Shown piece by piece: positions 3,741-32,899 of a stretch of 43,032 nt of DNA. How positions within the stretch are numbered: the stretch's first letter is position 1; each line of letters opens with the position of its first letter. This DNA comes from Acinetobacter phage 5W, in sequence record MT349887.1; one strand, 5' to 3'. Both the position numbers and the translations under genes were made by a program. Under the pieces are notes generated by a model that was given only the letters and a program-made list of their open reading frames with translations, did no database searches and was not told the origin of the DNA.

Positions 3741-4497
3741 GAAAGGGCGTAGAGCATCTAAGCCGAGAGCCGTGCACGTAAATCGCCGTGTAGAGCTATA
3801 TTACACACGGCAATTACTGGCTATCTCAAAATATTGTCAGGAACAAACTAAGGATTTAGTTATTCCTACAGTAGGCCAGAACATCGGAGATGCATGGTTC
3901 TCTGACATGATGGCGGCGTTTAGGGAAAAGCTCACAAAGTATGTTGTTGAGGTTTCCCGTCCGTTGGCCACAAAGGTTGTGACTGACACCCAAAAGGAAG
4001 TGGACAAGCAAATTGCAGAGCACACCAAAACAATTATTGGTGTGGATCTTACGCCGTTTTATCGAGCTGCTGATATCCAAGACGAGGTAGATCTAAACAT
4101 TACGGCAAATGTCAGTTTGATTAAGTCTATTCCGCAGCAATATGCCGATAAGCTTGAGGTATTAATCACCAATGCTTTGCAGACTGGACAAACTAATGAA
4201 GAGTTGGCCAAAGCTATTAAGCAATTAGGATTATCTACTGATTATCGTGCACGTCTTATTGCTAGTGATCAGATGGGCAAGATTAACGGCCAAATTAACC
4301 AAGCCCGACAGCTTTCAATGGGTGTTGAGACATACACATGGCAAACGGCGAAAGATGAGCGTGTAAGGCCAGATCATCAACATAAGCAGGGCAAGACATT
4401 TAGATGGGATTCACCGCCAGAAGGGGGACATCCGGGCCAGCCTATCCGTTGTCGTTGTACAGCGTTGCCTAACTATGAGGATATTTTAATTGACTAA
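3685..4497 (+). CDS. Head morphogenesis protein (Mu F-like / SPP1 gp7 family)
   Basis: C-terminal 'RPDHQHKQGKTFRWDSPPEGGHPGQPIRCRCT' is typical of the MuF/gp7 family; follows portal. Confidence 0.75.
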   Translation: MTTIIQILKPHLQQAKKRKKGRRASKPRAVHVNRRVELYYTRQLLAISKYCQEQTKDLVIPTVGQNIGDAWFSDMMAAFREKLTKYVVEVSRPLATKVVTDTQKEVDKQIAEHTKTIIGVDLTPFYRAADIQDEVDLNITANVSLIKSIPQQYADKLEVLITNALQTGQTNEELAKAIKQLGLSTDYRARLIASDQMGKINGQINQARQLSMGVETYTWQTAKDERVRPDHQHKQGKTFRWDSPPEGGHPGQPIRCRCTALPNYEDILID

Positions 4498-5032
4498 AGA
4501 TATCGTTTTTTTGCTTTAGTTCTTCTATTCTTCTTAAATATCCATTGTGGGCATAATAAATTCTTCCTTTAGAAGTTGTTAAATGTTTTAGGTATCGCTC
4601 CAATTCCTCTAAAGAAGGATTTTGTTTTTCATCACTTAACCCTGTAATTAGTTCATTAATAACTTGCTCGGGTGTTGTTAATAGATCTAATTGTTTTTTA
4701 AAGTATTCGTGATAGTTGTAGTCGAAGCCATCCAGTTTATCTTCGAGAGTTAAATTTTGAGCTTGTAGCATTTTCGAAAATTCAGATTTAAGAGCGTTAT
4801 TCTTGTGTTTAATCTCATAAATTAAATCCTTACATTCATAAGCGGCACTTAGTATTGAAAGTTTTAACTCAAAAAGTCTTTGATCCTGAGAGAGCTTAAT
4901 TTGTTTTTTCGCATATAAAGCTGCAATAACTGCAAAAATTAAACCTATCACAGCAAGAAGTGTTTGTAATTGGCCTGAATTAGCTCCGATTAATGCCCAT
5001 AAATAATTAAGATGATTCATTTTATTAACCAA
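4469..5032 (-). CDS. Antisense moron: membrane-anchored coiled-coil protein of unknown function
   Basis: 187 aa on the opposite strand inside the late head operon; one N-terminal TM ('LLAVIGLIFAVIAALYA') then predicted coiled coil; visibly AT-richer than flanks. Confidence 0.5.
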   Translation of the reverse strand: MVNKMNHLNYLWALIGANSGQLQTLLAVIGLIFAVIAALYAKKQIKLSQDQRLFELKLSILSAAYECKDLIYEIKHKNNALKSEFSKMLQAQNLTLEDKLDGFDYNYHEYFKKQLDLLTTPEQVINELITGLSDEKQNPSLEELERYLKHLTTSKGRIYYAHNGYLRRIEELKQKNDIFSQLKYPHS

Positions 5033-5070
5033 ATTGTTTTTACCGTAGTTTAATTCTTACTCTTTTAAAG

Positions 5071-5098
5071 AACCACCTAAACAGGTGGTTTTTATTTG
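5071..5098 (+). terminator. Rho-independent terminator (aaccacc-taaaca-ggtggtt + T-run)
   Basis: Perfect 7-bp stem followed by tttttattt on + strand; lies upstream of the - strand moron start. Confidence 0.55.
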
Positions 5099-5099
5099 G

Positions 5100-5408
5100 A
5101 TGAAATTTATGAAACGTAAAAAGTTTAGTAAAAAACGGTTTTATCGCCGTTTACAAGCACAGAAATTTGCTAAAGGCGGGTTTGTAACTGGTGGCGACTT
5201 CACTCCACTGTGGTTAATGTCTTGCTGTGACGGGTTTCCTAACTTGGCTAAGGCGGCGGGTAAGGCTGCTGAAAAGTTTCAAGAGGTGGTGGAAAGTTTA
5301 AAAGGATTGCAGCCGCCGAATATCAAACCCATTAAAACTAATATTTTTATTGATGGTGTAGATTTCGGTTCTGCTAAAGACTTTTCTGTTACCTATTCAA
5401 GAACGTAA
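5100..5408 (+). CDS. Hypothetical basic protein (isolated between two terminators)
   Basis: ORF track gives 5085 (GTG); ATGs at 5100/5109; very basic N-terminus 'KRKKFSKKRFYRR'; bounded by terminators on both sides. Confidence 0.35.
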   Translation: MKFMKRKKFSKKRFYRRLQAQKFAKGGFVTGGDFTPLWLMSCCDGFPNLAKAAGKAAEKFQEVVESLKGLQPPNIKPIKTNIFIDGVDFGSAKDFSVTYSRT

Positions 5409-5423
5409 TTTTGAAAATTAATA

Positions 5424-5447
5424 AAGCCACCTTCGGGTGGTTTTTTT
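5424..5447 (+). terminator. Rho-independent terminator (aagccacc-ttcg-ggtggttt + T7)
   Basis: GC stem with ttcg tetraloop and T-run, directly after stop of 5100..5408. Confidence 0.8.
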
Positions 5448-5460
5448 GTGAGAAAAACTT

Positions 5461-5658
5461 ATGTCAGAAAAGATACGCCGTGACGTCAAAGTTGATTTTG
5501 TAAAGGGGACTAATTTACTTCAGTTGGTAGATGTTGAGACCGGCATCCCATTTAGTCGCCAGCAAAGAACTACCGTTGAGTCTTATGAAGATAAGGGACT
5601 TCGGTATACGAAAATTACAGTCGAGTTCTTAATACCTCAGAAGGTACCTAATGACTAA
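5461..5658 (+). CDS. Hypothetical small protein
   Basis: 65 aa ORF directly after terminator, overlaps start of next gene (ATGA-type coupling). Confidence 0.4.
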   Translation: MSEKIRRDVKVDFVKGTNLLQLVDVETGIPFSRQQRTTVESYEDKGLRYTKITVEFLIPQKVPND

Positions 5659-10242: not shown

Positions 10243-10266
10243 TCATTTTATGACCGCCTCTATGGC
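10243..10266 (+). terminator. Rho-independent terminator (accgcc-tctat-ggcggt + T-rich)
   Basis: GC stem-loop followed by tttgtcatttt between neck genes and tail tube gene. Confidence 0.6.
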
Positions 10267-10296
10267 GGTTTTGTCATTTTAGAGAGGTCAAAATAA

Positions 10297-11064
10297 ATGG
10301 CTCAATATTTATTTGGTGCCGGCAAGATCTTTGCTACACCGATTCAAGATGTATACGGGCAACCGATTAGCAATCCCACACCAGTTGAAGTGGGAGTGAT
10401 GCAATCCGTTGGTGTAGATATTAGCTATGACTTAAAAGAGCTTTTTGGTCGTGGACAGTTCGCCGTAGATGCGGCGCGTGGTAAAGGTACCATTAAATGT
10501 AAAGCTTCTTTCGGGCGTATTAACGGAACTTTGTTAAATTCCATTTTCTTTGGTGGCGTTGTTGCTGAAGGTGGAATCGAAACAGTTTCCCAAACCATTA
10601 ATGGTGAAGTGATTCCGGCTGGTGGTTCAGTTACACCGGTTGTTCCTAACAGTGGGACATATGTAAAGGATCTTGGCGTAACAGATGCTAAAGCAATCCC
10701 ACTTAAACGTGTAGCTTCGGCACCAACAACCGGACAATACAGTGTAGCTGCAGCAACCGGTGCTTATACATTTGCTGCTGCCGATGCAGGTAAAACGGTA
10801 TTTATTAACTTCCGTTATTCAGCAATGGTAGCGGATGCTAAGTCAATCACCGTTTCAAACCTAGACATGGGCTATACGCCAGAGTTTGCCGTTGACCTGC
10901 AACGTGACTACAAAGGCAAGTTCATGCACATGAATTTCTTCCGTTGCACCAGTAACAAACTTGGATTCAGTTCAAAACAGGACGATTACGACATTCCTGA
11001 GTTTGAATTCCAGCCAATGGCTGACGATCTTAACCGTGTTTTCAAAATCGATTTATCGGAGTAA
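10297..11064 (+). CDS. Major tail (tube) protein
   Basis: 255 aa; strong RBS 'agagaggtcaaaataaATG'; first gene of tail operon followed by chaperone pair and tape measure. Confidence 0.6.
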   Translation: MAQYLFGAGKIFATPIQDVYGQPISNPTPVEVGVMQSVGVDISYDLKELFGRGQFAVDAARGKGTIKCKASFGRINGTLLNSIFFGGVVAEGGIETVSQTINGEVIPAGGSVTPVVPNSGTYVKDLGVTDAKAIPLKRVASAPTTGQYSVAAATGAYTFAAADAGKTVFINFRYSAMVADAKSITVSNLDMGYTPEFAVDLQRDYKGKFMHMNFFRCTSNKLGFSSKQDDYDIPEFEFQPMADDLNRVFKIDLSE

Positions 11065-11070
11065 TACCAA

Positions 11071-11385
11071 ATGCAATTTAAGCAAGTTGAAAACCCTCGC
11101 GGCTCTACAGTTGTTGTTGATGGTCAGCCATTTGTTTTTGCTCCATTGTCTCTTGGTGCAGTCGAGAAACTATTGCCGGCACTTCAATCATTCAAGCCAG
11201 ATGATGTTGGCACTGTGATTGATGTAGCACACAAATCTTTGAAGCGAAATTACCCCGACATTACTCGTGATGATGTGGCAGAGATGCTATTCATGGATCA
11301 GCTAACAGAAGTTATGGAAGCTGTAATGTCCGTGTCTGGTCTTAAAGGGAATGATGACAGCGCTGCAGGTGGCTCGGGGGAATAG
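11071..11385 (+). CDS. Tail assembly chaperone (G-like)
   Basis: 104 aa acidic protein between tail tube and tape measure; overlapped at 3' end by a -1 frame ORF (see next). Confidence 0.55.
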   Translation: MQFKQVENPRGSTVVVDGQPFVFAPLSLGAVEKLLPALQSFKPDDVGTVIDVAHKSLKRNYPDITRDDVAEMLFMDQLTEVMEAVMSVSGLKGNDDSAAGGSGE

Positions 11386-11645
11386 ATTGGGAGGAGCTGT
11401 ACACGCATTTAGTGCTCACCATGGGTAAAGATTACGACTATGTGCGTAATGAAATGGACCTGCCTAGATTAAGAGCATTAAGTGCGTATCAGCAAAACAA
11501 CCCTCCCGCGCATGTTGGGATACAACGGCTTTGCCGTATTTTGGAAGCGTTCATGGGAATCGAAGAAACCCCACAAGCTATCACCGTTTCAGATGATGAA
11601 GAAGATATGTTAGAAGTTTTGTCGAATTTCCCGCAGGGTGGTTAA
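11358..11645 (+). CDS. Candidate -1 frameshift extension of tail assembly chaperone (GT-like)
   Basis: -1 frame is open from 11358 (TGA at 11355-11357), overlapping the last 28 nt of the chaperone ORF; G5 run 'ggggg' at 11376-11380 precedes the chaperone stop. Track ORF 11412..11645 (GTG). Confidence 0.4.
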   Translation, partial: QRCRWLGGIDWEELYTHLVLTMGKDYDYVRNEMDLPRLRALSAYQQNNPPAHVGIQRLCRILEAFMGIEETPQAITVSDDEEDMLEVLSNFPQGG

Positions 11646-11709
11646 GGCTGCCCTATAGTATTCTTATCAATTAACATGGATAATATGAAAATGATAAGGA
11701 GACCTATCT

Positions 11710-12420
11710 GTGAAGTTTAATAAATTTTTTATATTAATATTTTTATCGATGTTTTTGTTATTATTAGCTAACTTTTTTAATCCTGATATATCAAGTTGGG
11801 TAAAAAATAAGCTTAATATTTCTACAAATTCAGAATTAAATCCATATTATAAAAAAATGGTAGTTGTTCATCAAAGAATGGATGGAAGCATTAGAGAAGG
11901 TTCCATATTCTTTTTAGGGGACAGTATAACTCAATCTTTAAACGTAAATTCAGTAACCAATCAGGGAATTAATTATGGGATCGGCGGGGATACAACTTTT
12001 GGTTTATTGAATCGCATAAAGTATTATAATTCACTTAATAAAGCTGATAAAATTTTAGTAGCTATAGGGATTAATGATTTTATTTTTAACAGAACCAGTA
12101 AAGAAATCATAGAAAATTATGAAAAAATATTTGAATTACTACCTAAAGACAAAAAAGTTTTTATAAACTCAGTGTTGCCAGTTACATACCAATATACAGA
12201 GAATTCCGATAAAATTACTATTAAACAAATTGTAGAATTGAATCATGAATTGAAAAAATTTTGTAGTCTAAAACCAAATTGTGAATTCATTAATTCTTAT
12301 GGATTATTTGCAGATTCGGCAGGATTTTTAAAAAAATCCTATGATACTGGAGATGGAATACATCTTAATACTGAGGGATATAATCTCTTGATTAAGATAT
12401 TGAAAGTTAAAATTAATTGA
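11710..12420 (+). CDS. Secreted SGNH/GDSL-family hydrolase (lipase/acyl-esterase-like) moron
   Basis: GTG start with RBS 'aaggaga'; N-terminal signal/TM 'FILIFLSMFLLLLANFF'; blocks 'FFLGDSITQ' (GDS), 'GIND', 'DGIHLN' (DxxH); very AT-rich versus flanking tail genes. Confidence 0.8.
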   Translation: MKFNKFFILIFLSMFLLLLANFFNPDISSWVKNKLNISTNSELNPYYKKMVVVHQRMDGSIREGSIFFLGDSITQSLNVNSVTNQGINYGIGGDTTFGLLNRIKYYNSLNKADKILVAIGINDFIFNRTSKEIIENYEKIFELLPKDKKVFINSVLPVTYQYTENSDKITIKQIVELNHELKKFCSLKPNCEFINSYGLFADSAGFLKKSYDTGDGIHLNTEGYNLLIKILKVKIN

Positions 12421-12445
12421 ATTTAAACAATTAAACCTTTTTTGA

Positions 12446-12469
12446 AACTGCCTCACGGCAGTTTTTTTG
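12446..12469 (+). terminator. Rho-independent terminator (aaactgcc-tcac-ggcagttt + T7)
   Basis: Perfect 8-bp stem and T-run directly after the GDSL gene. Confidence 0.8.
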
Positions 12470-12488
12470 TGCCTGTGAGATAGTAATT

Positions 12489-15400
12489 ATGAACAACAAT
12501 CGAGTGGAAGTACATGTCAGTGCAAAAACTTCTGAGCTCAAGGAAGGGATGCAAGATGCTGAAAAAATAGTTTCAGATGCTTCCAAGAAAATTGAAAGCA
12601 CTGGAAAGAGTATCGATTTTAAACTTGATCTTTCAAATCTAAAGTCAGAGTTAAATGGTTTTGCAACAAGCCTTTCGGATAAATTTAAGACCGTAGGCAA
12701 TGATATTAAGAGTTCGCTGACTAATGGCCTATCTTTAGTCAGGGGCGGTTTTTTTGTTGGTATTGGCCAAGAGATTGCTAGAAGTGCAGCGGAAGCGGTT
12801 GCAGCAATTCCTGATCTTGTATCTGCAGTGGGTAAGGCTTCAAAAGAGTTAGAGATTCAAGCCCGATTAGCAAACTCGAATACTTTAGAATTTCAAGAAT
12901 GGGCATTTGCTGCCAAAAAAGTAAACGTGGAGCAGGACAAGCTATCGGACATCATGAAAGATGTAAACGATAAGTTTGGTGACTTCATGCAAACTGGTGG
13001 TGGTGAGATGGCCGATTTCTTTGAGAAGATCGCGCCAAAAGTCGGTGTCACTGCCCAACAATTTAAAGGCTTATCTGGTCCGCAAATCCTAGAAAAGTAC
13101 TACCAGACTTTGCAAAAAGCCAATGTGTCACAGGCTGAAATGACTTTCTATATGGAAGCCATTGCGAACGATGCAACATTATTAGCTCCATTATTGGATA
13201 ACAACGGTCAAAAATTAAAAGAGTACGCTAAACAGGCTCATGATTTAGGCGTAATCATGAGTGAAGATGCCATAGCTGCTACCAAAGAATTTAATACGTC
13301 CCTTGAGACTGTCCAAACAACACTTCAAGGAGTATTAACCCGTATTGCAGCACAAGCAGCTCCATCCCTTACTGAATTAGCTAATCAATTTTTAACTTTT
13401 GCGGTTGATTCCAAGGATGCCATTGATGATTCAATTAAATCGATTATTGGCATTTTTGAAAGCTTGTTTAGTATTCTAAGTGAGCAGTTCACAACGATTG
13501 GAGCAATCTGGAGTGACTTGACTGGAAGCATTGGAGACGATGCAAATAAACAGATTGGCTTTATGGATGCTATATCTGTAGTACTACGAGCATTAGGTGT
13601 TGTAGTTACCGGCTTTCAGGTAGGCGTTCAATCTGCTTTTGCAATCATTCGTGCCGTTGTAGTCACGGTATGCCAAGCTTTAATCATTGCTTTTAATGGC
13701 CTTATGGCTGGCTTTGATATGGTACGAAGTACTATTCAGTATGGTCTGGATGTATTACAGGTAAAGTTTCAAACATTTGGTAGCGTTGTAAATAACATCC
13801 TCCATTTTAACTTCTCAGGTGCAAAATCGGCATGGGAGGGTGGTTTATCTCAGCTTGGTAGTATTACTGATCGTTATACAAACCAAATGAAAGGACGAAT
13901 GGCTGACCTGAAAAACTCTTGGAATGCAGGAGCCACTACAGCAGCCAATTCACTTGTCACGGCTGGTAAAAGAATTCTTGAAGTTACAACTGCTGGCAAT
14001 CAGAAGATTACCAACTATGTATTTAAGGATCCTACTAAACCTTTTGAGCCACCTAAACCACCTAAGCTAGGCCTAGGTACTGCACCACCAAATACTAAAC
14101 TTGGTATTGGTACTGGGGAGAAGGACGAAAAAGGCGGCTCTAAATCGTCTGCAAAATCTAAAGCAGAACAAGAGGCTAAGGAACGGCAGCGACAAGCTGA
14201 GCAGGCAGCTAAAGCACTTGCTGATATTCGGTATAAATATGCATCCGAAGAAAAGAAAGTGGCTCTAGATCTTCAAAAGGCGTTAGATGAGATTGAAAAA
14301 TCCAAGATGACTGCAGATGAAAAAGCTGCTGCGAAAGTCAAAGCCGAAAAGGATGCATCCGACAAGATCATTGCTATTCGTTTAAAAGAGTTTGAGGAAT
14401 ACAAAAAAGCTCGTGAAGAACAAATAGACAATTATCAACAGCAAGCACAGCGCCTTTATGAAATTGAAGCGGCACGGATCCAAGCTGAATTTGATGCCAA
14501 GAAAATTTCAAATGTCCGTAAAGTTCAGTTGGAAAAACAGCTTGAAGATCAATTACGTGAAATTAAACGGCAAGGTCTTTTAGAGCGTTTAGCTTTGGAA
14601 AATGAGCAGACCAACATTACAGGCAAACAAGGTAATCAAAACCAAATCACAAACAACATTTCTGATTTAGAGACAGACCAGAAAGTTGCTGACACTAAGT
14701 CTATGGGCTTAATCAGTGATGCGGAAATGAAAGACTTTGAGGCCAAGTTCGGTGGCTTTACTTCTCGACTTTCTAACCTTTGGGATCAGGGTATTCAGTC
14801 TCTTATGAATGGTACCCTCACTTGGAGTAACGCAACTAAAGCAGTGCTTGCTGACATGGGGCAATTTGCCTTGCAAACAGCTACTAAAGAGCTACAAGGC
14901 TGGTTAAGAATCCAAGCTATTAAATTGGCTCGTAAACTTGGATTTGTCGGTGCTGAAACAGCCGCTGAAGCTTCTGGCCAAGCTGCTCAAACAGGGGCAA
15001 CCATTGCAGGTGAAGCAACACGTACCAGTGTTACTGCAGCTGGTGGTTTAGCTCGTTTAGGCTTAAAAGCTGCTGAAGCTATCAAAGGCATCATGATGTC
15101 TGCATGGGAAGCAATGGCCGGAGCTTTTAAAGCGATGGTCGCAATTCCATATGTTGGTCCAATTCTTGCCGTTGGTGCAGGTGCGGCTGCTTTTGGTTTA
15201 GTGGCTGGACTTGCTGGAAAGATTAAATCTGCTCGTGGCGGTTACGACATTCCTGCCGGTGTAAACCCTATGACGCAATTGCACGAAGAAGAAATGGTAT
15301 TGCCGAAACAGCATGCCAATACCATTCGTGCCCTAGGTAAATCTATGGCCAATGGTGGTCTGGGAGGTGGTGGCGAGAACACTGCACAGCCCGTTATTTT

Positions 15401-15512
15401 CAGTCCTACCATTCAGGCTTGGGATTCAAAGGATGTTCGACGCTTCTTCAAGAAGCATGGTAGTGAATTAGCAGACAGTCTTAAGGGCTATAACCGTAAT
15501 TTTGGTAAATAA
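12489..15512 (+). CDS. Tail tape measure protein
   Basis: 1007 aa, long alpha-helical/coiled-coil with Ala/Gly-rich hydrophobic C-terminal region; position after chaperone pair. Confidence 0.85.
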   Translation: MNNNRVEVHVSAKTSELKEGMQDAEKIVSDASKKIESTGKSIDFKLDLSNLKSELNGFATSLSDKFKTVGNDIKSSLTNGLSLVRGGFFVGIGQEIARSAAEAVAAIPDLVSAVGKASKELEIQARLANSNTLEFQEWAFAAKKVNVEQDKLSDIMKDVNDKFGDFMQTGGGEMADFFEKIAPKVGVTAQQFKGLSGPQILEKYYQTLQKANVSQAEMTFYMEAIANDATLLAPLLDNNGQKLKEYAKQAHDLGVIMSEDAIAATKEFNTSLETVQTTLQGVLTRIAAQAAPSLTELANQFLTFAVDSKDAIDDSIKSIIGIFESLFSILSEQFTTIGAIWSDLTGSIGDDANKQIGFMDAISVVLRALGVVVTGFQVGVQSAFAIIRAVVVTVCQALIIAFNGLMAGFDMVRSTIQYGLDVLQVKFQTFGSVVNNILHFNFSGAKSAWEGGLSQLGSITDRYTNQMKGRMADLKNSWNAGATTAANSLVTAGKRILEVTTAGNQKITNYVFKDPTKPFEPPKPPKLGLGTAPPNTKLGIGTGEKDEKGGSKSSAKSKAEQEAKERQRQAEQAAKALADIRYKYASEEKKVALDLQKALDEIEKSKMTADEKAAAKVKAEKDASDKIIAIRLKEFEEYKKAREEQIDNYQQQAQRLYEIEAARIQAEFDAKKISNVRKVQLEKQLEDQLREIKRQGLLERLALENEQTNITGKQGNQNQITNNISDLETDQKVADTKSMGLISDAEMKDFEAKFGGFTSRLSNLWDQGIQSLMNGTLTWSNATKAVLADMGQFALQTATKELQGWLRIQAIKLARKLGFVGAETAAEASGQAAQTGATIAGEATRTSVTAAGGLARLGLKAAEAIKGIMMSAWEAMAGAFKAMVAIPYVGPILAVGAGAAAFGLVAGLAGKIKSARGGYDIPAGVNPMTQLHEEEMVLPKQHANTIRALGKSMANGGLGGGGENTAQPVIFSPTIQAWDSKDVRRFFKKHGSELADSLKGYNRNFGK

Positions 15513-15521
15513 GGAGGATTC

Positions 15522-16175
15522 ATGTCAGACGTATTGTTTCCAGAATTACCCGGTCTTGAATGGGATACATCTATTACTCCCATGTTTAACACCAAAATCA
15601 TGACCTCCATTAATGGCCGGGAGCTTCGAGCAAGCTTTCAGGCCTCACCTAAATATGAAATCTCGTTGTCTTACGCATTCTTGCGCGAAAATAAGGGGAG
15701 AAAGGAATTGCAGCAACTTCAAGGATTTTATTTAGAGCGCCGTGGGGCGTTTGATTCTTTTCTTTATAAGATGCCTGAGGATAATGAGTTTAATTGCACA
15801 TTTGTTGGTGATGGCTCTACTACTTCATTCCAACTTTACAAGGATATGTATACAAGCCAATTGCCTCTAGGTAATACAGAGGAACAGATTGTAGGTGAAG
15901 TAGATCCCAACATGTGGAATCAGGTTCCTGTAAAAACAATGTGGAATTCAGATCCAGAGAAATTGATGTGGAACACAGCTTCTGCTCAGATAACGAGTGA
16001 CGGAAAATATGTACTTTCACAGCCGATTGAGGAAGGCGTAGAGGTAACTGTAACGGGTACTTTTTACTATCGCTGCCGCTTTAAAGATGACACACAGCAA
16101 TATGTCAACTTTATGCATAAGCTTTGGAAAGCTGGAAAGGTTGAATTAATTGGTTCTTTGGGGAATAAGATATGA
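15522..16175 (+). CDS. Distal tail protein (DUF2460 / GTA g12-like)
   Basis: 217 aa directly after TMP; first of a GTA-like distal-tail gene set. Confidence 0.5.
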   Translation: MSDVLFPELPGLEWDTSITPMFNTKIMTSINGRELRASFQASPKYEISLSYAFLRENKGRKELQQLQGFYLERRGAFDSFLYKMPEDNEFNCTFVGDGSTTSFQLYKDMYTSQLPLGNTEEQIVGEVDPNMWNQVPVKTMWNSDPEKLMWNTASAQITSDGKYVLSQPIEEGVEVTVTGTFYYRCRFKDDTQQYVNFMHKLWKAGKVELIGSLGNKI

Positions 16176-17029
16176 GACAGGCCTCTCCAAAACTTATAGC
16201 CTTGTTAGATGCTGATCAGTTCATCATGGCCGATCTTTATACTATTACGACCATACAAGGTATTGAGTATCGCTATACCAACTATGACGTTCATTTGACG
16301 GTGCAAGGCAAAGAGTTTCGTGCTGATGGACCAATCATAAGTCGAGAAGGAATAAGCCTTTCCTTGGGTATTGAAGTTGATAATCTCTCTATCAAAATAG
16401 AAACCAATGAAAGTACTAAATTTGGTGACGTACCTGTAGCTCAGGCATTTCATAACGGCGTTTTAGATGGTGCTCGTTTCAAGCTTGAACGTATTTTTAT
16501 GGATATAAATACTCCTACTGATACGAGTGCCGGCACGTTAGTTTTATTTGAAGGTCGCATTGTTGAGCCGGAACTCGATCGTTATGAAATTAACGCTAGC
16601 GTGGTTTCAGAAGTGGATGACTTAAAACTTCAGATGCCAAGGAACTTATACACACCAGGTTGTTTAAATACTTTGTTTGATAGTGCGTGTGGACTATTTA
16701 GTGCTGATTTTGCCGTGAATACGACTATCGGGCCGAATAGTACACCTAGCCGCATCCTTTGTGACTTAAGTCAGCCGCAGGGGTGGTTTACACAGGGGGT
16801 TGTAGAATTCTTGGAAGGTGCAAACATTGGTATTAAGCGTACAGTCCGTTTGCATGAATCGGGCGCAATGCTTCTAACTCTACCACTTCTCGACATGCCA
16901 GCAATTGGTGAAGCTATTCGGGTTTATCCGGGTTGTGATAAACGTCTCGATACTTGTACTAACCGTTTTAACAACCGTGCTCGCTTTCGAGGCGCGCCGT
17001 TTGTTCCAGTTCCAGAAACTTCTATTTAA
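16172..17029 (+). CDS. Tail hub protein (DUF2163 + phage BR0599 domain; GTA g13-like)
   Basis: 285 aa; C-terminal '...CTNRFNNRARFRGAPFVPVP' is characteristic of the BR0599 domain. Confidence 0.6.
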   Translation: MRQASPKLIALLDADQFIMADLYTITTIQGIEYRYTNYDVHLTVQGKEFRADGPIISREGISLSLGIEVDNLSIKIETNESTKFGDVPVAQAFHNGVLDGARFKLERIFMDINTPTDTSAGTLVLFEGRIVEPELDRYEINASVVSEVDDLKLQMPRNLYTPGCLNTLFDSACGLFSADFAVNTTIGPNSTPSRILCDLSQPQGWFTQGVVEFLEGANIGIKRTVRLHESGAMLLTLPLLDMPAIGEAIRVYPGCDKRLDTCTNRFNNRARFRGAPFVPVPETSI

Positions 17030-17047
17030 CAACTTTATATTTAATCA

Positions 17048-17075
17048 AAGCCCTGCAAATCGCAGGGCTTTTTAT
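17048..17075 (+). terminator. Rho-independent terminator (aagccctgc-aaatc-gcagggctt + T-run)
   Basis: 9-bp perfect stem followed by tttttattt; lies inside the tail gene cluster just before the esterase tail gene. Confidence 0.8.
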
Positions 17076-17089
17076 TTGGGAAATATATT

Positions 17090-18916
17090 ATGGCAGTTCC
17101 TGATAAAGACGCCCTGATTGGGCCTACGGTCACAGAGGCACAATTTAAAACCAATCTTGGTGCAATTGTGGATTTCATTAAACCAATTGAATCTCAAAGC
17201 CCTAACTATGCAACCACTGCTTTGCTGACTGCTTCAAGACCCGTTAAAAACCAAAGTTATGCAAAAGCCCTAGATACAGGGAAGGTATGGTATTGGAATA
17301 AACCAGCAGGATCACCAGAAGGAAATTATTGGGTAGAGACTGAGCTAAGTGATCTTGATCAGGCAATAACCTATACAGATGGGCAATTTAATCTAGCAAT
17401 AAAAAGAGCAGTTTTTGAAACTTTATCACAGCTATTTGGACTGGCTAAATCAGACGATCCAACTAAAATTGGAGTTTTGTTGGACGGTGTTGGTCGTATC
17501 TTGTTGGGTTATGACCTAGAAAAAGATACAGGTATTTATGCGGGGATGCTTGAGCAAGTTGTTGAAATTATTCCGGGGCTTAAGCTTTATAACGATGGTC
17601 GATATTTAGGTTTGTTAGGTGATTCTAGTAGGCAGATATTGATCGGTTATGACATGCTTAATGACTTGCCCATCATTGCGGGCCTTGATGAGTTGATCAA
17701 TGGTGCGGGCGGCACAAATACAAAACCTGTTCCAGCCGAAAGAAACCATATAGTTGGATACGGACAGTCTTTAAAAACAGGTGCTACCGCAACAGTTATT
17801 CTAAGTATTCTTCAGCCTTATTTTAATGTGACATTCGGTACGGGTCCGCGTATGGACTCTGCTGCAACTTCGGTCATTCCATTGGTTGAGCAATTTAATA
17901 ATCCAAGTTCAGACGGCTACAGCAATCGCGGTGAGACTTGTTGTTCTGGTGCTGCAAATTATGCAAGCCGTGCAATGATGCTTGAAAACGGTATTGATCC
18001 GAAAGATCATGTGATTTTTGCAAGCACTGCTGCACATGGTGGGTATCGTATAGATCAGTTAAAAAAAGGGTCTGAATGGTATAGCTTTTTGATTAAGCAT
18101 ATAACTGAAGCAAAACGGTTGAGTGGAGATAAGACTTACAAAACGCAAGTTATTGATTGGGGACAGGGTGAAAATGACGCCATTTATACTGTTCGAACCC
18201 CCTATGCGGTTTATAAGTCTGAACTTGCACAGCTGCAGTTAGATGTAAGCAGTGATATTAAAGAAATCACCGGGCAATCTGAAACAGCACCATTTATTAC
18301 TTACCAGATGTCATATGCTGCCCGCACATGGCCTGATATTGCAAAAGCTCAATTAGATTTAGTTCGAGAAAGCCCGTATTTTATGCTTTCAACACCTATG
18401 TATCACATGCCATATGCAGAAGACAGCATTCATTTAACAAATGTTGGTTACAAGTGGCTTGGTGCTTATGTTGGTCGAGCTTATAAGCAATATATGATTG
18501 ATGGGCGAAAATCAGATTTCATCAACCCAAAAGTAGCTCAACTTGTAGGTGATGAAATACACATTCATTTTGATGTGCCGAAAGCGCCACTTGTGCTTGA
18601 TACGGCAACTTTGGCTGCTACTACAGACAACGGCTTTAAGGTTTTAGTAAATGATACTGCGGCAACGATTTCCGGCATTAGCGCAGAAAATGACAAAGTT
18701 ATTATCAAACTGTCTAGCCCACCTGCAACAGGTGCATCGGTAATTGTTAGATACGCCCTAGATTACCTAGGTGCTGGATTATCAATAGATGGCGGTGCTT
18801 CCGGCAATCTCCGTGATTCAACAACAGATTCAATTGAAATTGCAGGTGTAGAAAGACCGCTATATCACGTATGCCCGCATTTTGAATTAACTGCATTTAC
18901 AGATAAAGGAATTTAA
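17090..18916 (+). CDS. Tail fiber/spike-like protein with SASA/SGNH carbohydrate acetylesterase-like domain
   Basis: 608 aa; N-terminal tandem ~33-aa repeat; central 'HIVGYGQSLKTG' (GQS nucleophile block) and 'AEDSIHLTNVGYKWLGAYVGRAY' (DxxH block) resemble sialate-O-acetylesterase/SGNH; beta-rich C-terminal domain. Confidence 0.55.
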   Translation: MAVPDKDALIGPTVTEAQFKTNLGAIVDFIKPIESQSPNYATTALLTASRPVKNQSYAKALDTGKVWYWNKPAGSPEGNYWVETELSDLDQAITYTDGQFNLAIKRAVFETLSQLFGLAKSDDPTKIGVLLDGVGRILLGYDLEKDTGIYAGMLEQVVEIIPGLKLYNDGRYLGLLGDSSRQILIGYDMLNDLPIIAGLDELINGAGGTNTKPVPAERNHIVGYGQSLKTGATATVILSILQPYFNVTFGTGPRMDSAATSVIPLVEQFNNPSSDGYSNRGETCCSGAANYASRAMMLENGIDPKDHVIFASTAAHGGYRIDQLKKGSEWYSFLIKHITEAKRLSGDKTYKTQVIDWGQGENDAIYTVRTPYAVYKSELAQLQLDVSSDIKEITGQSETAPFITYQMSYAARTWPDIAKAQLDLVRESPYFMLSTPMYHMPYAEDSIHLTNVGYKWLGAYVGRAYKQYMIDGRKSDFINPKVAQLVGDEIHIHFDVPKAPLVLDTATLAATTDNGFKVLVNDTAATISGISAENDKVIIKLSSPPATGASVIVRYALDYLGAGLSIDGGASGNLRDSTTDSIEIAGVERPLYHVCPHFELTAFTDKGI

Positions 18917-18918
18917 AA

Positions 18919-19698
18919 ATGACTCAATTATTTTTTCAAGCGAAGAACTTTGTAAGTAAGAGATCTTTACCTAAATTATCAAATGTTGATGATTTGCTGC
19001 CAAATCTTGAGTATGAAGCGTATGGGCATTGGGTTTTTGAAAACACATCGGCTTCATTGACGGATAAAGTGAATAATAGACTTTTAGCATTGCAAAGTGG
19101 TGCTACAGTGCAACCCATTTACTCTGAATCGGGAGTAACAATCTCAACTGCCGTAGGTAATGCTCTTGTAAGTGATTTAATTGATACATCAGCACAAAGT
19201 GTAACGCTTACAGCAGTTGTGAAATGCAATAACACCCAATTAGCTATTTTATTAGGAAACTTAGTACCCAGCAATTCTACAACGAGTAGTGGTTTAGCGG
19301 GCTTTGCTTCGGCCGGGAAGGGATACTTGACAGTTAAGCCAACCGCTGCTGCTGGTTCGGGGGGAATTTCGTCATTAACACCAGCATCTGGGCATAATCA
19401 AACATCAAACTTTTTTATTGCTGTTAGCGTAGATAAAGCAACTAAAAAAGGAATTATTTACGTTCAACAAAATTCGGCAGAATTAACAAACGAAGCAGTT
19501 TATACAGCTCCTGTTTACGAAAGTGCACTGAATAAGTTTGCTTTTGGCAATAATGCATACACGGGATCAAATGCCCCGGCAAATACAGCAACTTTTGCAG
19601 AAGGGGTTATCTTTGATAAAGCTTTAACTTTAGATGAAATTAAAGCTGTTGCAACCCGATCAAAAAATCGGATGGCAAATCGCGGAATCATCTTTTAA
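18919..19698 (+). CDS. Concanavalin A/LamG-like jelly-roll domain tail protein
   Basis: 259 aa; C-terminal 'FAFGNNAYTGSNAPANTATFAEGVIFDKALTLDEIKAV' resembles LamG_3-type lectin domains. Confidence 0.45.
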   Translation: MTQLFFQAKNFVSKRSLPKLSNVDDLLPNLEYEAYGHWVFENTSASLTDKVNNRLLALQSGATVQPIYSESGVTISTAVGNALVSDLIDTSAQSVTLTAVVKCNNTQLAILLGNLVPSNSTTSSGLAGFASAGKGYLTVKPTAAAGSGGISSLTPASGHNQTSNFFIAVSVDKATKKGIIYVQQNSAELTNEAVYTAPVYESALNKFAFGNNAYTGSNAPANTATFAEGVIFDKALTLDEIKAVATRSKNRMANRGIIF

Positions 19699-19738
19699 TT
19701 AGCCCCTTAATTGGGACTTTTTTATTTCCGAGGGGAGT

Positions 19739-20161
19739 ATGAAAAATCTCGAAGCAGTTCAAGAAGCCTTAACTTGGCTCGGTACCCCATATCATCATCA
19801 AGGGCGTATTAAAGGTGTCGGTGTGGACTGCGGAACATTGATCTGTGAAGTCTACGAGAAAGTAGGGCTCATGGATCACCTAGATCCGCGACCATATCCA
19901 CCAGACTGGCACATGCACCAGATGGGACAACGCTATTTAGAGCTCATTTTAGGTGTATGTGATCCGATTGAAGGGCCACCACAACCCGGGGATATAGTTT
20001 TATACCACTTTGGCAAATGTATCAGTCATGGTGCAATTGTGATTGAGTGGCCACAGGTCATTCACAGTTATATCCATCAGGGAGTCATTATCCAAGATGG
20101 AACAAAAGGAAGTTTAGCCCGGCGAATTGCCGGGTTTTTTCGTATGAAGAGGCTTAAATAA
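19739..20161 (+). CDS. NlpC/P60-family cell-wall peptidase (GTA g14-like)
   Basis: 140 aa; catalytic Cys context 'GVGVDCGTLICEVY' and downstream His residues; canonical position in GTA-like tails. Confidence 0.75.
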   Translation: MKNLEAVQEALTWLGTPYHHQGRIKGVGVDCGTLICEVYEKVGLMDHLDPRPYPPDWHMHQMGQRYLELILGVCDPIEGPPQPGDIVLYHFGKCISHGAIVIEWPQVIHSYIHQGVIIQDGTKGSLARRIAGFFRMKRLK

Positions 20162-22651
20162 ATGGGTGGATTATTTGGTAGTACTACAATTAGTACAACG
20201 GATACCCGTATTAACTCTATGCGGATCCAGCAGTCAGCTTATGGGCTTTGCCAGCCATTGGTTTATGGTAAAACTCGTGTAGCGGCTAATATGTTTTGGT
20301 ATGGAGATTTTACAGCTACACCTCATACAACAGTTCAAAAGTCTGGTGGTAAGGGTGGGGGTACAAAAACCAGTAATACCACCTTTAGTTATAGCGCCTC
20401 TCTCATGCTCGGTTTATGTGAAAACCAGATTAAAAAGATTGGCCTGATTTGGGTAGACAAAGAGCAATATGTACCTAAACAAGAAGGATCTATTACCTTA
20501 GATCCCATCGACCAGTTAAAATTTGAATTATTCGATGGAAATAATAATCCGCCGTGGGGATGGTTAGTATCAAAGCATCCAGATCAAGCCATTAACTATC
20601 CTTATCTTGGGTATGTGGCCGCTGCCAATTACGAGATGGGTAATAGTGCCAGTCTTTCAAACCATAACTTTGAAGTGATTAGTACCATCACTTTGTCGGA
20701 TACCATTGATGATGCTAATCCTGCGGATGTAATTGAAGACTTCATTACGCATCCTCGCTATGGGGCTGCCCCAAATCTTAACATTGCAGATCTATCGGAA
20801 TTTCGTACTTATTGCCGAGCAGCCAACCTTCTTATTAGTCCAGCATTCACCGAACAACGTGCAGCTTATGAAACGATTAATGAAATTGTAGAAGCTGTAA
20901 ATTGTGCTGTGGTACCAAGCCCAGATGGCTTAAAGATCCGTTCTTTTGGGGACTCTGCAATAACGGGTACCGGAGTAACTTTTACTCCAGATCTCACACC
21001 TGTTTATCACTTAACAGATGATGATTTTATAGGTGATGATGAACCGGTAAGAGTACGCCGTAGCCGTGATACTGATGCTTATAATCATGTGCAGATTGAA
21101 TACATCAATCGATATAATCAGTACAACACCGAAACAGTAGAAGCCAAAGATCAGGCAAATATTGAAATGTACGGATTGCGTACGGAAGATCCGGTAGAGA
21201 ATCATTTCTTTTGTGAACCAAAAATAGCTCGTCATGCTGCACAGCTTCGCTTACAACGATTGCTTTATGTGCGTAATGAATATGAGTTTAACCTTGGTTG
21301 GAAGTACTGCCGTTTAGAGCCAATGGACATTCTTACGTTGACTGAATCGGGATTGGGGCTTGATAAATTCCCTGTTCGTATTACACGTATAGAGGAAGAT
21401 GAAAGCGGCATGTTAACCGTTACTGCAGAAGAATTATCTATCGGTTCAAGGTCTGCCATTGAGTATGACTCTCAAGTGTCAAATGGTTATCAGGGCGGAA
21501 ATGAAGAGCCGGGTAATGTGAATGCACCATCTATATTTGAGCCACCGCTGGATCTTACGGATGGCAAGAATCAAGTTTGGGTTGCTGTCTCGGGCGGGGC
21601 TAATTGGGGTGGATGTAATGTTTGGGTGAGCCTTGATAATACGACATATGAAATGATTGGCACAATTTATGGATCGGCACGTTATGGGCAGCTTGTTACA
21701 ACAGTTGATGCAGATGATACGACATTACAAGTTGAGCTAAATACAGCAAGCCAGATCTTCAGCGGAACATTAGAAGATGCTCAAGCTGACCAAACACTTT
21801 GTAAAGTGGGGGATGAGTATTTTAATTATCAGGTAGCCACCTTAAACGGATCTGGTCTTTATACCTTAAGTGATGTTTTACGTGGACGTTTTGATGATGC
21901 ACAAAGCCACAACGCTGGTGAGCCATTTGTTCGTTTGGATAAAGCTATATTCAAATATCCGTACAATGAGGGTCTAGTAGAAAAACAAATCTTTTTAAAG
22001 TTCACAAGCTTTAATGGTTTGGAACGTAAGGAGCAAACCTTAGATGAGGTTACGGCGTATAGCTATACTCTAAGTGGCGGCCGTCCAGCAGGTGTTAAAG
22101 GTCTTTCCCTCCAATCACCGTTTGTTGGTACCACTTTCAAGGTTCAATGGCAAAGCTCAACTGGTGCAGATGGCTATCGTGTTCAGGTCTGGTCTAATGG
22201 GACAATGATTCGTCAAGTTGATACAACTAATACGGATTATAGTTATTCGATCGAAGAAGCCAAACAAGACGGTTTAGGCCGAGCTTACACAATTCGAGTG
22301 GCCAGCAAAAATGGTGACCAAGTTAGTACCTTTGCTGAATTGAGTATTAGTAATCCGGTTCCGCCAGTACTTCTCAATGTGTACACAGCAGCAACTGTAG
22401 ATTCTATTACGGTGAATTGGGTGCCTAGTGAAGTACCGGATCTGAAAGACTATGCAGTGTGGCTAAGTCCAACACCTAATTTTGATCCAACACAAATGCC
22501 GCCTACGTGGACCGGCACAGATTTAACAACTACTTTTGGAGGCTTACAACCAACAACCCCATATTACATTCGTGTAGCTGTACGTGATGTATGGGAAAAC
22601 ACAGTCTGGAATTATACAAATCAGATTACTCAAAGTACTTCTGAAGGTTAA
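20162..22651 (+). CDS. Host specificity / baseplate protein (GTA g15-like) with C-terminal fibronectin type III repeats
   Basis: 829 aa; follows NlpC/P60 gene; C-terminal FN3-like repeats; last tail gene before lysis cassette. Confidence 0.75.
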   Translation: MGGLFGSTTISTTDTRINSMRIQQSAYGLCQPLVYGKTRVAANMFWYGDFTATPHTTVQKSGGKGGGTKTSNTTFSYSASLMLGLCENQIKKIGLIWVDKEQYVPKQEGSITLDPIDQLKFELFDGNNNPPWGWLVSKHPDQAINYPYLGYVAAANYEMGNSASLSNHNFEVISTITLSDTIDDANPADVIEDFITHPRYGAAPNLNIADLSEFRTYCRAANLLISPAFTEQRAAYETINEIVEAVNCAVVPSPDGLKIRSFGDSAITGTGVTFTPDLTPVYHLTDDDFIGDDEPVRVRRSRDTDAYNHVQIEYINRYNQYNTETVEAKDQANIEMYGLRTEDPVENHFFCEPKIARHAAQLRLQRLLYVRNEYEFNLGWKYCRLEPMDILTLTESGLGLDKFPVRITRIEEDESGMLTVTAEELSIGSRSAIEYDSQVSNGYQGGNEEPGNVNAPSIFEPPLDLTDGKNQVWVAVSGGANWGGCNVWVSLDNTTYEMIGTIYGSARYGQLVTTVDADDTTLQVELNTASQIFSGTLEDAQADQTLCKVGDEYFNYQVATLNGSGLYTLSDVLRGRFDDAQSHNAGEPFVRLDKAIFKYPYNEGLVEKQIFLKFTSFNGLERKEQTLDEVTAYSYTLSGGRPAGVKGLSLQSPFVGTTFKVQWQSSTGADGYRVQVWSNGTMIRQVDTTNTDYSYSIEEAKQDGLGRAYTIRVASKNGDQVSTFAELSISNPVPPVLLNVYTAATVDSITVNWVPSEVPDLKDYAVWLSPTPNFDPTQMPPTWTGTDLTTTFGGLQPTTPYYIRVAVRDVWENTVWNYTNQITQSTSEG

Positions 22652-23145: not shown

Positions 23146-23688
23146 ATGAACATTGAACAATATCTTGACGAACTCATTAAGCGTGAAGGCGGGTATGTAA
23201 ATAACCCAGCTGATCGAGGAGGGGCAACTAAGTATGGAATTACTGAAGCAGTTGCTCGAGCGAATGGATTCAAAGGTAATATGCGAGATTTACCTCTGGA
23301 TGTAGCCAAAGCAATTTACCGCAAAAACTATTGGACAGCTCCACGATTTGACCAAGTAAATGCAGTTTCTTCTGCAGTAGCTGAAGAGCTTCTAGACACT
23401 GGTGTGAATTGCGGTACCGGATTTGCAAAACCTCTTTTACAACGAGCTTTGAACTTGCTTAATAACCAAGGTAAAGCTGGATATGCAGATTTAGAGGTTG
23501 ATGGTGTTTATGGCTCAGCAACGCTAGGTGCCCTTAAAACATACTTGTCAAAACGTGGGAAAGAAGGTGAGAAGGTTCTGGTGCGAGTGCTCAATATTAT
23601 GCAAGGGCAACGCTACATTGAAATCTGTGAGCGTAATCCAAAGCAGGAACAGTTTTTCTATGGCTGGATTGCTAACCGGATCGGCTAG
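23146..23688 (+). CDS. Endolysin: GH108 lysozyme-like domain + PG_binding_3 peptidoglycan-binding domain
   Basis: N-terminus 'EGGYVNNPADRGGATKYGIT' is the GH108 signature; RBS 'aaggaaaagttaaATG'. Confidence 0.8.
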   Translation: MNIEQYLDELIKREGGYVNNPADRGGATKYGITEAVARANGFKGNMRDLPLDVAKAIYRKNYWTAPRFDQVNAVSSAVAEELLDTGVNCGTGFAKPLLQRALNLLNNQGKAGYADLEVDGVYGSATLGALKTYLSKRGKEGEKVLVRVLNIMQGQRYIEICERNPKQEQFFYGWIANRIG

Positions 23689-32767: not shown

Positions 32768-32899
32768 ATTGCATAATCCCAATATCTACTATAAAAACTA
32801 TTGGCAATCTACACATTACACACTAAAACATCAATAAATATTACTATCTAATAAGTGATATACCCCACATTTAAAAGACTGTGTCGGGTTCACAGTTTA

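Follow-up and report, generated by a model that had tools for sequence, protein, structure and literature searches.

Acinetobacter phage 5W (sequence record MT349887.1; 43,032 nucleotides, the whole stretch analyzed and hereafter the window) is a complete temperate Acinetobacter baumannii siphovirus that encodes two esterases of the SGNH superfamily: a 608-amino-acid (aa) protein of the tail and a 236-aa product of a cargo gene, or moron, with a low content of guanine plus cytosine (GC; Table 1). The two share no similarity beyond one motif and are probably acetylesterases with different jobs, one a receptor-binding tail enzyme and the other a periplasmic, glycan-editing cargo product. A preliminary description of this DNA had speculatively paired them as an entry and exclusion system, in which the tail enzyme deacetylates the receptor and a lysogen strips the same modification, excluding related phages. 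Among the prophages sampled, the two genes are statistically linked, yet they are not a co-evolving, specificity-matched pair. The co-occurrence expected from such a pair was found, whereas the lack of co-variation, esterase-tailed relatives that carry no moron, and natural moron knock-outs count against the matching.

A tail protein of deacetylase type was present in all 28 moron-bearing loci whose receptor-binding slot could be read (27 of the SASA family and one of the CE4 family, the latter a Polysacc_deac_1 protein at locus L110 that stands for seven similar places), compared with 18 of the 49 moron-less relatives with a readable slot (Fisher's test, p = 4e-9 by locus and 0.0012 by allele cluster). 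The moron-less slots held 12 esterases with a C-terminal Lipase_GDSL_2 domain, six SASA-type esterases, 13 CotH-like proteins (eight of them followed by a DUF285-type second open reading frame, ORF), three BNR/sialidase-like proteins, and three Peptidase_S11 proteins, with the remainder unclassified. Profile searches for hidden esterases among the 'unknown' tail proteins of the moron-less relatives moved only one locus (L046), which was reassigned to the SASA type. A lookup by exact major tail protein yielded nothing but near-identical prophages with the moron and is uninformative as an unbiased sample of A. baumannii, and a scan of one genome per species shows the narrow distribution of the moron and has no bearing on the association within A. 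baumannii.

Co-variation between the moron and the tail protein was not found in these loci. Only two moron alleles exist, both near-invariant and 91% identical to each other, and they reassort with at least eight SASA alleles and with one CE4 protein, which has a different fold. Allele A (100%) occurs with tail alleles that are 99-100, 81, 72, and 57% identical and with the CE4 protein, and allele B (91%) occurs with tail alleles that are 57, 52, and 43-44% identical. The 57% tail allele was found with allele A, with allele B, and without a moron. SASA-tailed phages without the moron are common, including the loci L042, L046, L050, and L105 and the phages fLi-Aba02 and fEg-Aba01 (89% identity). 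An acetylesterase of broad specificity need not vary in step with its tail counterpart, which leaves room for a strict pair.

The larger enzyme had been described as an SGNH-type esterase on the tail, and its ORF, its SASA type, and its place in the receptor-binding slot of the tail module were all confirmed. It matches Pfam SASA (PF03629) with an E-value of 5.8e-9 and 36.3 bits (cut-off 24.8) and falls in PHROG 4201, annotated 'tail fiber'. The SASA family is defined by a Gln beside the catalytic Ser (GQS) and by an (H)QGE block III that replaces the classical Asn (PMC9487903). The corresponding hallmarks are G225-Q226-S227, Q359-G-E within the block III stretch W-G-Q359-G360-E361-N362-D, and D445-x-x-H448, the latter two read from the translation. 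Across 25 homologues (41-82% identity), Y224, G225, S227, G360, and H448 are invariant and Q359 is near-invariant. In the structural model, the catalytic domain (~215-475) is confident and the N-terminal ~210 residues are of low confidence. The top structural match is the tailspike of cyanopodophage Pan3 (9vyh; E 1.2e-24, full length, 621 aligned columns), followed by the carbohydrate acetylesterases XAC1771 (7kmm) and mammalian SIAE (8f9o) and by 1zmb and 2apj. Residues ~110-608 are found again, attached to unrelated N-termini, in Acinetobacter siphoviruses, in the myovirus Phab24, and in the podoviruses SWH-Ab-1 and PD-6A3, which is the signature of a mobile receptor-binding module, and identity among relatives ranges from 43 to 100% while the flanking genes hold at about 90%. 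Family, position, and catalytic residues point to a receptor-binding esterase, with a surface polysaccharide as its predicted substrate.

Tail enzymes of this kind are already known, and the earlier assumption that they deacetylate surface polysaccharides agrees with experiments on members of the class acting on capsule or O-antigen (PMC8471582, PMC10743462). SGNH/SASA tail fibers have been catalogued in the Acinetobacter phages fLi-Aba02, fEg-Aba01, DMU1, SH-Ab 15497, and PD-6A3 (PMC11058221), and 'tailspike esterases' of A. baumannii prophages were described in 2025 (PMC12115436). All of them, the window protein included, are structural components of the tail that combine an SGNH esterase domain with an N-terminal adaptor open to exchange; gp21 of fLi-Aba02 is 89% identical to the window protein over residues 40-608, and the PDB neighbors 7KMM, 8F9O, 2APJ, and 1ZMB are the same for the window enzyme and the published Acinetobacter tail esterases. 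Among them, only for gp41 of phage Aristophanes has the substrate been demonstrated: it is the 4-O-acetyl group carried by 6-deoxytalose in the K26 capsule. Nuclear magnetic resonance showed the removal of one O-acetyl from this capsule, and cells pre-treated with gp41 were not infected by Aristophanes (PMC8471582). Aristophanes gp41 was modeled on an Ape-type SGNH domain (4K7J), whereas the window protein is SASA-type. The gp63.1 protein of phage G7C is likewise a deacetylating tail protein, as the window enzyme is predicted to be, and E. coli mutants without O-unit acetylation (wclK) are completely resistant to G7C (PMC10743462); this resistance through loss of O-acetylation is the logic behind the exclusion idea. 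In contrast to the window phage, G7C is a virulent N4-like podovirus that targets O-antigen rather than capsule and has no second phage esterase. The precedents of Aristophanes gp41 and G7C gp63.1 suggest capsule as the substrate of the window enzyme. The close relative vB_AbaSI_5 is reported to produce no halo and to show no depolymerase activity (PMC13187125), which is compatible with a tail enzyme that is a deacetylase.

The gene directly downstream encodes a 259-aa partner protein, which is 40-100% identical among relatives and tracks the tail esterase allele. A ConA-like lectin/glucanase domain was assigned to the second tail-fiber protein (gp22) of fLi-Aba02/03 (PMC11058221), and the shared stretch that spans the 259-aa gene is 97.8% identical at the DNA level. 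A sequence search of the 259-aa protein against the PDB gave spurious antibody matches only.

The receptor-binding slot as a whole (17030-19738 in the window; also read in L027-L116 and L124-L143) is an extraordinarily diverse cassette site. Esterases occur there, either SASA-type or with a C-terminal Lipase_GDSL_2 domain, as do a CE4 polysaccharide deacetylase paired with a DUF1833 protein and CotH-kinase-like proteins paired with DUF285 proteins. BNR/sialidase-like proteins, one protein of 1098 aa that contains a Peptidase_S11 (D-Ala-D-Ala carboxypeptidase) domain, and numerous unclassified ones were also found. In three loci (L126, L127, and L130) nothing occupies the slot, and the hub gene directly precedes the NlpC/P60 gene.

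The smaller enzyme had been called a secreted SGNH esterase. Its ORF, its SGNH residue set, and its predicted export were upheld, and 'secreted' is better replaced by probably tethered to the inner membrane. Its sequence places it in the SGNH hydrolase superfamily, in the classical GDSL_2/PAF-AH-like branch, with a match to Pfam Lipase_GDSL_2 at 6.4e-18 and 66 bits (cut-off 32.9). By published block definitions (PMC9487903), block I with the nucleophilic Ser is G70-D71-S72, followed by N88/G90, G120-x-N122, and D215-x-x-H218, all invariant in 24 family members of 24-91% identity. Invariance or near-invariance extends to G92/G93 next to N88-x-G90 and to D123 after G120-x-N122, and block V is conserved as D215-G-I-H218. 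The AlphaFold2 model (pLDDT 93.9) has an alpha/beta/alpha fold and matches SGNH structures in Foldseek with E-values of 5e-15 to 1e-10. The closest solved structures are 2hsj from S. pneumoniae, the Bacteroides/Phocaeicola sialate O-acetylesterase (6njc/7pzg), and mammalian PAF-AH Ib, with TM-scores of 0.82-0.85 (on target) and 26-27% identity. Because these are acetyl-specific esterases, 'acetylesterase' fits the protein better than 'lipase', and they suggest that it hydrolyzes acetyl esters. EstA of Bacteroides/Phocaeicola vulgatus (6NJC, 7PZG), 2HSJ, and PAF-AH Ib share with it the canonical Ser-Gly-Asn-His set; unlike it, they are soluble, anchorless, and not phage-borne, and 26% identity is too low for transfer of a substrate assignment.

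The N-terminus of the moron product (MKFNKFFILIFLSMFLLLLANFF) forms a 20-residue uncharged helix between charged residues, at residues 2-23 in the model, and an uncharged segment of 19-21 residues is kept in nearly all family members. This conserved helix resembles a type II signal anchor more than a signal peptide with an evident cleavage site, and it places the catalytic domain, by prediction, outside the cytoplasm, so that the enzyme is probably exported and stays fixed to the inner membrane on its periplasmic side. Homologues in E. coli and Enterobacter have ordinary cleavable signal peptides instead. The GenBank start for the esterase of vB_AbaSI_5 is an internal ATG (11749) that gives 223 aa and cuts into the hydrophobic N-terminus; the GTG at 11710, with its strong AAGGAG, restores the basic n-region (K2, K5) of the anchor, and this longer form is the one called in hundreds of genomes. 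In the paper on vB_AbaSI_5, the GDSL gene appears only as a 'unique gene' with a possible part in the modification of surface polysaccharides (PMC13187125).

A common origin of the two esterases was rejected, as their BLASTP similarity is confined to the DxxH motif (E 0.55). The moron was also rejected as a detached tail esterase domain, its best E-value against the C-terminal Lipase_GDSL_2 domains of related tail proteins being 0.66.

That the small esterase gene is a moron, a horizontally acquired cargo gene, was borne out by composition and distribution. Its GC content is 25.5%, compared with 39.8% across the window and 42-45% in the adjoining genes, and it is present or absent among relatives. 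In 80 relatives retrieved via the upstream 104-aa gene (L027-L106), the interval between the 77-aa gene and the tape measure gene (11646-12488 in the window) always has a GC content below that of the phage. At least 15 alternative low-GC, plus-strand cargoes occupy this slot, which is empty in L106 only. Those that could be annotated include Zn-ribbon/TM2 membrane proteins (101-114 aa) and Zn-ribbon/DUF2393-like proteins (Zn-ribbon proteins of 166-180 aa); others are a protein of 195 aa that may be a lipoprotein (weak lipobox match, E 0.0098) and a T5orf172 protein of 395 aa. L027 has identical flanks and a different cargo, with homology stopping just past the stop codon at 11645 and returning at the ribosome-binding region of the tape measure gene. 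Each alternative cargo has its own hairpin and T-run at the end of the slot. Low GC and the pattern of presence and absence mark the moron as cargo; independent transcription is only a candidate trait. The moron shares its strand with the late operon and lies inside it, and the only promoter-like element seen by eye upstream is a -10-like GATAAT (11679-11684).

At 90% identity or above, the moron protein forms only three clusters, all in Acinetobacter, and the next relative is 50% identical, which indicates a recent and narrow acquisition. The exact protein was found in 1,227 blocks of an assembly collection, and almost every context that was read came from a complete A. baumannii chromosome. 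In 20 loci of other Acinetobacter species, from the one-genome-per-species scan with the hub protein, both the moron and a full-length tail protein of the SASA608 type were absent.

More distant homologues of the moron lie in several kinds of context. Two lie in polysaccharide loci, one with a Wzx-type flippase, glycosyltransferases, and a CE4 deacetylase (L118) and the other with exosortase genes and glycosyltransferases (L119). A third, P0024 in L022 (32% identity), precedes an AT3 acyltransferase gene by 13 bp in an operonic arrangement, and those in L117 and L120 are cargo in mobile elements. Another (L024-L026:8001-8690) is found downstream of the tail-fiber chaperone, in the terminal part of E. 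coli prophages that have Mu-like baseplates, and one (L144:1863-2663) lies between the tailspike and integrase genes of the P22-like Escherichia phage vB_EcoP-683R2, the position in which P22 carries its O-antigen conversion genes. Locations in polysaccharide loci and in conversion-type prophage positions support a role of the moron in the acetyl chemistry of surface glycans, not of lipids. As to the direction of the reaction, the structural neighbors of the model favor hydrolysis, and the AT3 neighbor keeps transfer as a minor rival. The GenBank start of the vB_EcoP-683R2 homologue seems too short, as an in-frame signal-peptide-like stretch (...LFIFMFLLSIPFFSFASD...) lies upstream.

In its predicted function, the moron resembles the cargo of seroconverting prophages such as Sf6 Oac (Shigella), BTP1 OafB/GtrC family II (Salmonella), and D3 (Pseudomonas), which alters the acetylation of surface polysaccharides at the periplasmic face of the inner membrane and changes phage susceptibility; the homologue in the tailspike-integrase slot of a P22-like E. 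coli phage adds to the likeness. The Oac, OafB, and D3 genes encode AT3 acetyltransferases that add acetyl groups, whereas the moron encodes a stand-alone SGNH protein without AT3 and is a predicted remover. The NanS-p enzymes of Stx prophages are, like the moron product by prediction, non-structural, prophage-encoded carbohydrate acetylesterases carried as cargo; they are SASA-family enzymes with which nutrients are acquired from mucin, and they have no link to tail esterases, whereas the moron product is GDSL_2-type and membrane-anchored. No deacetylase-based conversion or exclusion gene was found in the literature searched.

Building on the cargo status, catalytic competence, and predicted export of the moron, we infer its substrate, timing, and phenotype, along with the role of the tail enzyme, as follows. 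The N-terminal adaptor would dock the 608-aa protein onto an RcGTA-like baseplate, and the catalytic domain would bind and de-O-acetylate surface polysaccharide, most likely capsule, at adsorption, probably assisted by the 259-aa neighbor, for whose fLi-Aba02/03 counterpart the lectin-like domain was published. The 236-aa enzyme, on the periplasmic face of the inner membrane, would remove acetyl groups from a glycan crossing the periplasm, with undecaprenyl-linked capsule units or polymer as candidate substrates. The effect would be a lysogenic conversion able to change susceptibility to acetyl-dependent phages, and exclusion by deacetylation is plausible by analogy with the precedents. A sharper version has the anchored acetylesterase erase the O-acetyl of the host's capsule units during their synthesis, so that the lysogen or the debris of the dying cell would become invisible to phages whose tail esterases need the acetyl, its own kin included; this is conceivable, though we think it rather unlikely.

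Several points weigh against two separate enzymes with a conversion role for the moron. Both enzymes of this phage are known here from sequence and models alone. No sigma-70-like plus-strand promoter was found in 11646-11709 by a consensus scan, in which the site total equaled the shuffled expectation, and the hairpin at the end of the slot is thermodynamically weak (z = -2.1), with a slightly stabler competing hairpin in the minimum-energy fold, and was missed by the consensus scan; the moron may be expressed only along with the late genes. A copy of ISAba1 (99.9% identical to annotated copies) interrupts the moron at L009:10412-11591, at about codon 137 (about 12118-12126 in the window), with a 9-bp target duplication (GAAAATTAT), and an ISAba1-split moron also lies at contig ends in four related assemblies (L006, L007, L008, and L010), so that natural knock-outs persist in lysogens. 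The association with deacetylase-type tails is confounded, as the moron-bearing loci stem from A. baumannii-complex genomes and form a sublineage that is young and has only two alleles, and the moron-less set consists of IMG/VR viral contigs whose host range may differ. Finally, SGNH proteins can be acetyltransferases as well as esterases, and one homologue is operonic with an AT3 gene.

Other explanations were weighed on the same evidence. A dedicated entry and exclusion pair, in which lysogens express the moron and thereby lose exactly the O-acetyl group that the phage's own tail esterase needs as receptor, appears improbable. It draws on the resistance of acetyl-less hosts to esterase-tailspike phages, seen for G7C on wclK mutants (PMC10743462) and for Aristophanes on cells pre-treated with gp41 (PMC8471582), on the complete co-occurrence, on features typical of morons (low GC content, a dedicated Shine-Dalgarno sequence, and a hairpin followed by a T-run), and on the membrane proteins, typical of exclusion genes, among the other cargoes of the slot. 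These must be set against two near-invariant moron alleles that face at least eight SASA alleles (43-100%) and a CE4 protein, a 57%-type tail allele seen with either moron allele and with none, esterase-tailed relatives (12 GDSL_2-type and six SASA-type) that lack it, a moron not derived from any tail esterase domain, no promoter detected upstream by the consensus scan, and ISAba1 knock-outs that persist. Less probable still is a role in lytic growth rather than in the lysogen, with the moron co-transcribed with the tail genes, for which its orientation and place in the late structural operon, the failure to detect a promoter of its own, and the predicted periplasmic catalytic domain would be suited. 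The enzyme would either destroy receptors on dying cells and cell debris and thus keep the progeny from being trapped there, in the manner of Llp of T5 or a viral receptor-destroying enzyme, or de-O-acetylate peptidoglycan so that the GH108 endolysin, a muramidase, can cut. Muramidases are blocked by peptidoglycan O-acetylation. The closest structural relatives of the moron, however, are not Ape-type peptidoglycan esterases, its homologues keep company with capsule and exopolysaccharide loci rather than cell-wall genes, and most phage relatives do without it; a literature search gave no clear evidence of peptidoglycan O-acetylation in A. baumannii, which is not decisive.

It is very unlikely that the moron supplies the periplasmic transferase part of a split O-acetyltransferase, taking acetyl groups from a host AT3 or MBOAT donor and adding them to a surface glycan, which would be a form of acetylating seroconversion. 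The AT3 gene next to homologue P0024 is suggestive, SGNH domains carry out the transfer step in OafA/OafB, OatA, and PatB (PMC9487903, PMC9558356), and a membrane anchor would keep the enzyme beside a membrane partner, but no AT3 or MBOAT gene was found in the window, Acyl_transf_3 (PF01757) matched neither the moron nor the other ORFs scanned, the nearest structures are hydrolases, with the C-terminal domain of OatA ranking only 42nd, and a phage with a tail enzyme that uses acetyl groups would not be kept out by their addition. The least probable explanation, to which we give hardly any weight, makes the moron unrelated to receptors: a lipase, virulence factor, or nutritional esterase that helps the lysogen in the manner of NanS-p of Stx prophages. 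The labels 'GDSL lipase' and 'lysophospholipase L1-like' in source databases, a gut-bacterial sialate O-acetylesterase as the closest characterized structure, and the precedent of prophage NanS-p esterases (PMC10462455) lean this way. A membrane-tethered periplasmic site argues against host mucins or external lipids as substrates, the structural neighbors are specific for acetyl groups rather than long acyl chains, and the homologues adjoin polysaccharide synthesis genes and phage tail-fiber or tailspike genes.

Bases 11000-20200, a 9.2-kb tail region, are 99.6% identical to Acinetobacter phage vB_AbaSI_5 (PQ382036), a 43.7-kb temperate siphovirus with an integrase and a repressor, and ten proteins of a prophage in A. 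baumannii CP084724 (L108) are 100% identical to those of the window. The same prophage is common across A. baumannii genomes. Pfam matches show a tail module built on the RcGTA/phiJL001 plan, with E-values of 4.6e-35, 1e-32, and 1.4e-25 for the DUF2460, Gp84_N, and BR0599 baseplate domains, and the tail esterase and 259-aa genes are two extra genes lodged between the hub and the peptidase. Within the co-directional late structural operon, strong terminator-like hairpins lie before the major tail gene (10252-10270), before the tail esterase gene (17047-17071), and inside the 3′ end of the NlpC/P60 gene (20116-20136), which suggests that late transcription relies on antitermination or segmented expression.

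Other parts of the window also vary. A second cargo slot (4469-5650), between a Mu_F-like minor capsid gene and a DUF2213/Pa193_gp24 gene, holds a minus-strand 187-aa ORF and a 107-aa ORF in the window, a 457-aa HEPN protein in vB_AbaSI_5, and DUF6602, DUF1643, 8xMP, or insertion sequence (IS) elements in other relatives. Two low-GC patches are probably further cargo: one (30500-32782, GC about 0.31-0.35) encodes a 760-aa N6 DNA methylase with an HSDR_N-like N-terminus, and the other (41000-42000) holds a 216-aa ORF (41308-41958, GC 0.28) with no Pfam match.

Table 1. Features of the window around the two esterase genes, in window coordinates (nt, nucleotides).
Feature	Position	Strand	Basis or remark
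Two small genes, 104 aa and 77 aa	11071..11645	+	PHROGs 7947, 8018; tail-assembly-chaperone position, a putative role assigned from synteny alone; upstream edge of cargo slot
Shine-Dalgarno sequence AAGGAG	11696..11701	+	8 nt before the GTG start of the moron; from sequence
Moron, predicted 236-aa SGNH acetylesterase, low-GC cargo	11710..12420	+	Pfam, alignment, model, GC
Moron, predicted N-terminal membrane anchor	nt 11713-11778		Residues 2-23
Moron, catalytic residues	S72, nt 11923-11925; D215/H218, nt 12352-12363		
Terminator-like hairpin AAACTGCC-TCAC-GGCAGTTT and T7 run	12445..12468	+	From sequence; before the conserved ribosome-binding region of the tape measure gene
Tape measure protein, 1007 aa	12489..15512	+	'Tail protein' in PQ382036; downstream edge of cargo slot
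DUF2460 baseplate gene	15522-16175	+	Pfam
Hub protein, Gp84_N and BR0599 domains	16172-17029	+	Pfam
Hairpin and T-run in the gap between hub and tail esterase genes	17047..17071	+	-17.4 kcal/mol, z = -4.0
Tail esterase, putative receptor-binding, 608 aa	17090..18916	+	Pfam SASA, PHROG 4201, alignment, model
Tail esterase, domains			Adaptor, residues ~1-110; SASA-type SGNH, ~215-475; C-terminal beta-sandwich, ~479-608
Tail esterase, catalytic residues	S227, nt 17768-17770; H448, nt 18431-18433		
259-aa partner protein	18919..19698	+	PHROG 4390
NlpC/P60 peptidase	19739-20161	+	Pfam; conserved downstream edge of receptor-binding slot
Phage-tail_3 'megatron'-type central tail protein	20162-22651	+	Pfam; downstream edge of receptor-binding slot
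GH108 muramidase endolysin	23146-23688		

With the tail esterase being of a known kind, the new element is the pairing idea. To our knowledge, surface modification by prophages has so far been known to work by the addition of acetyl or glucosyl groups; if the anchored enzyme did erase an O-acetyl determinant in this way, it would be the first mechanism of exclusion or lysogenic conversion that removes a surface modification rather than adding one. The small exported SGNH genes next to tailspike or tail-fiber genes of E. coli prophages hint that the strategy may be general. Removal of acetyl groups would then join their addition as a mode of phage-phage competition, a role that recent work on Klebsiella names merely as a possibility (PMC13123978). 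If the moron changes the O-acetylation of the capsule, K-locus typing would mispredict surface chemistry, with consequences for the prediction of host range in phage therapy, for capsule vaccines, and for serology. Whatever the outcome for the pairing, the two exchange slots of this prophage lineage, one for receptor binding and one for cargo, amount to a natural collection of enzymes for receptor binding and of cargo genes directed at the envelope.

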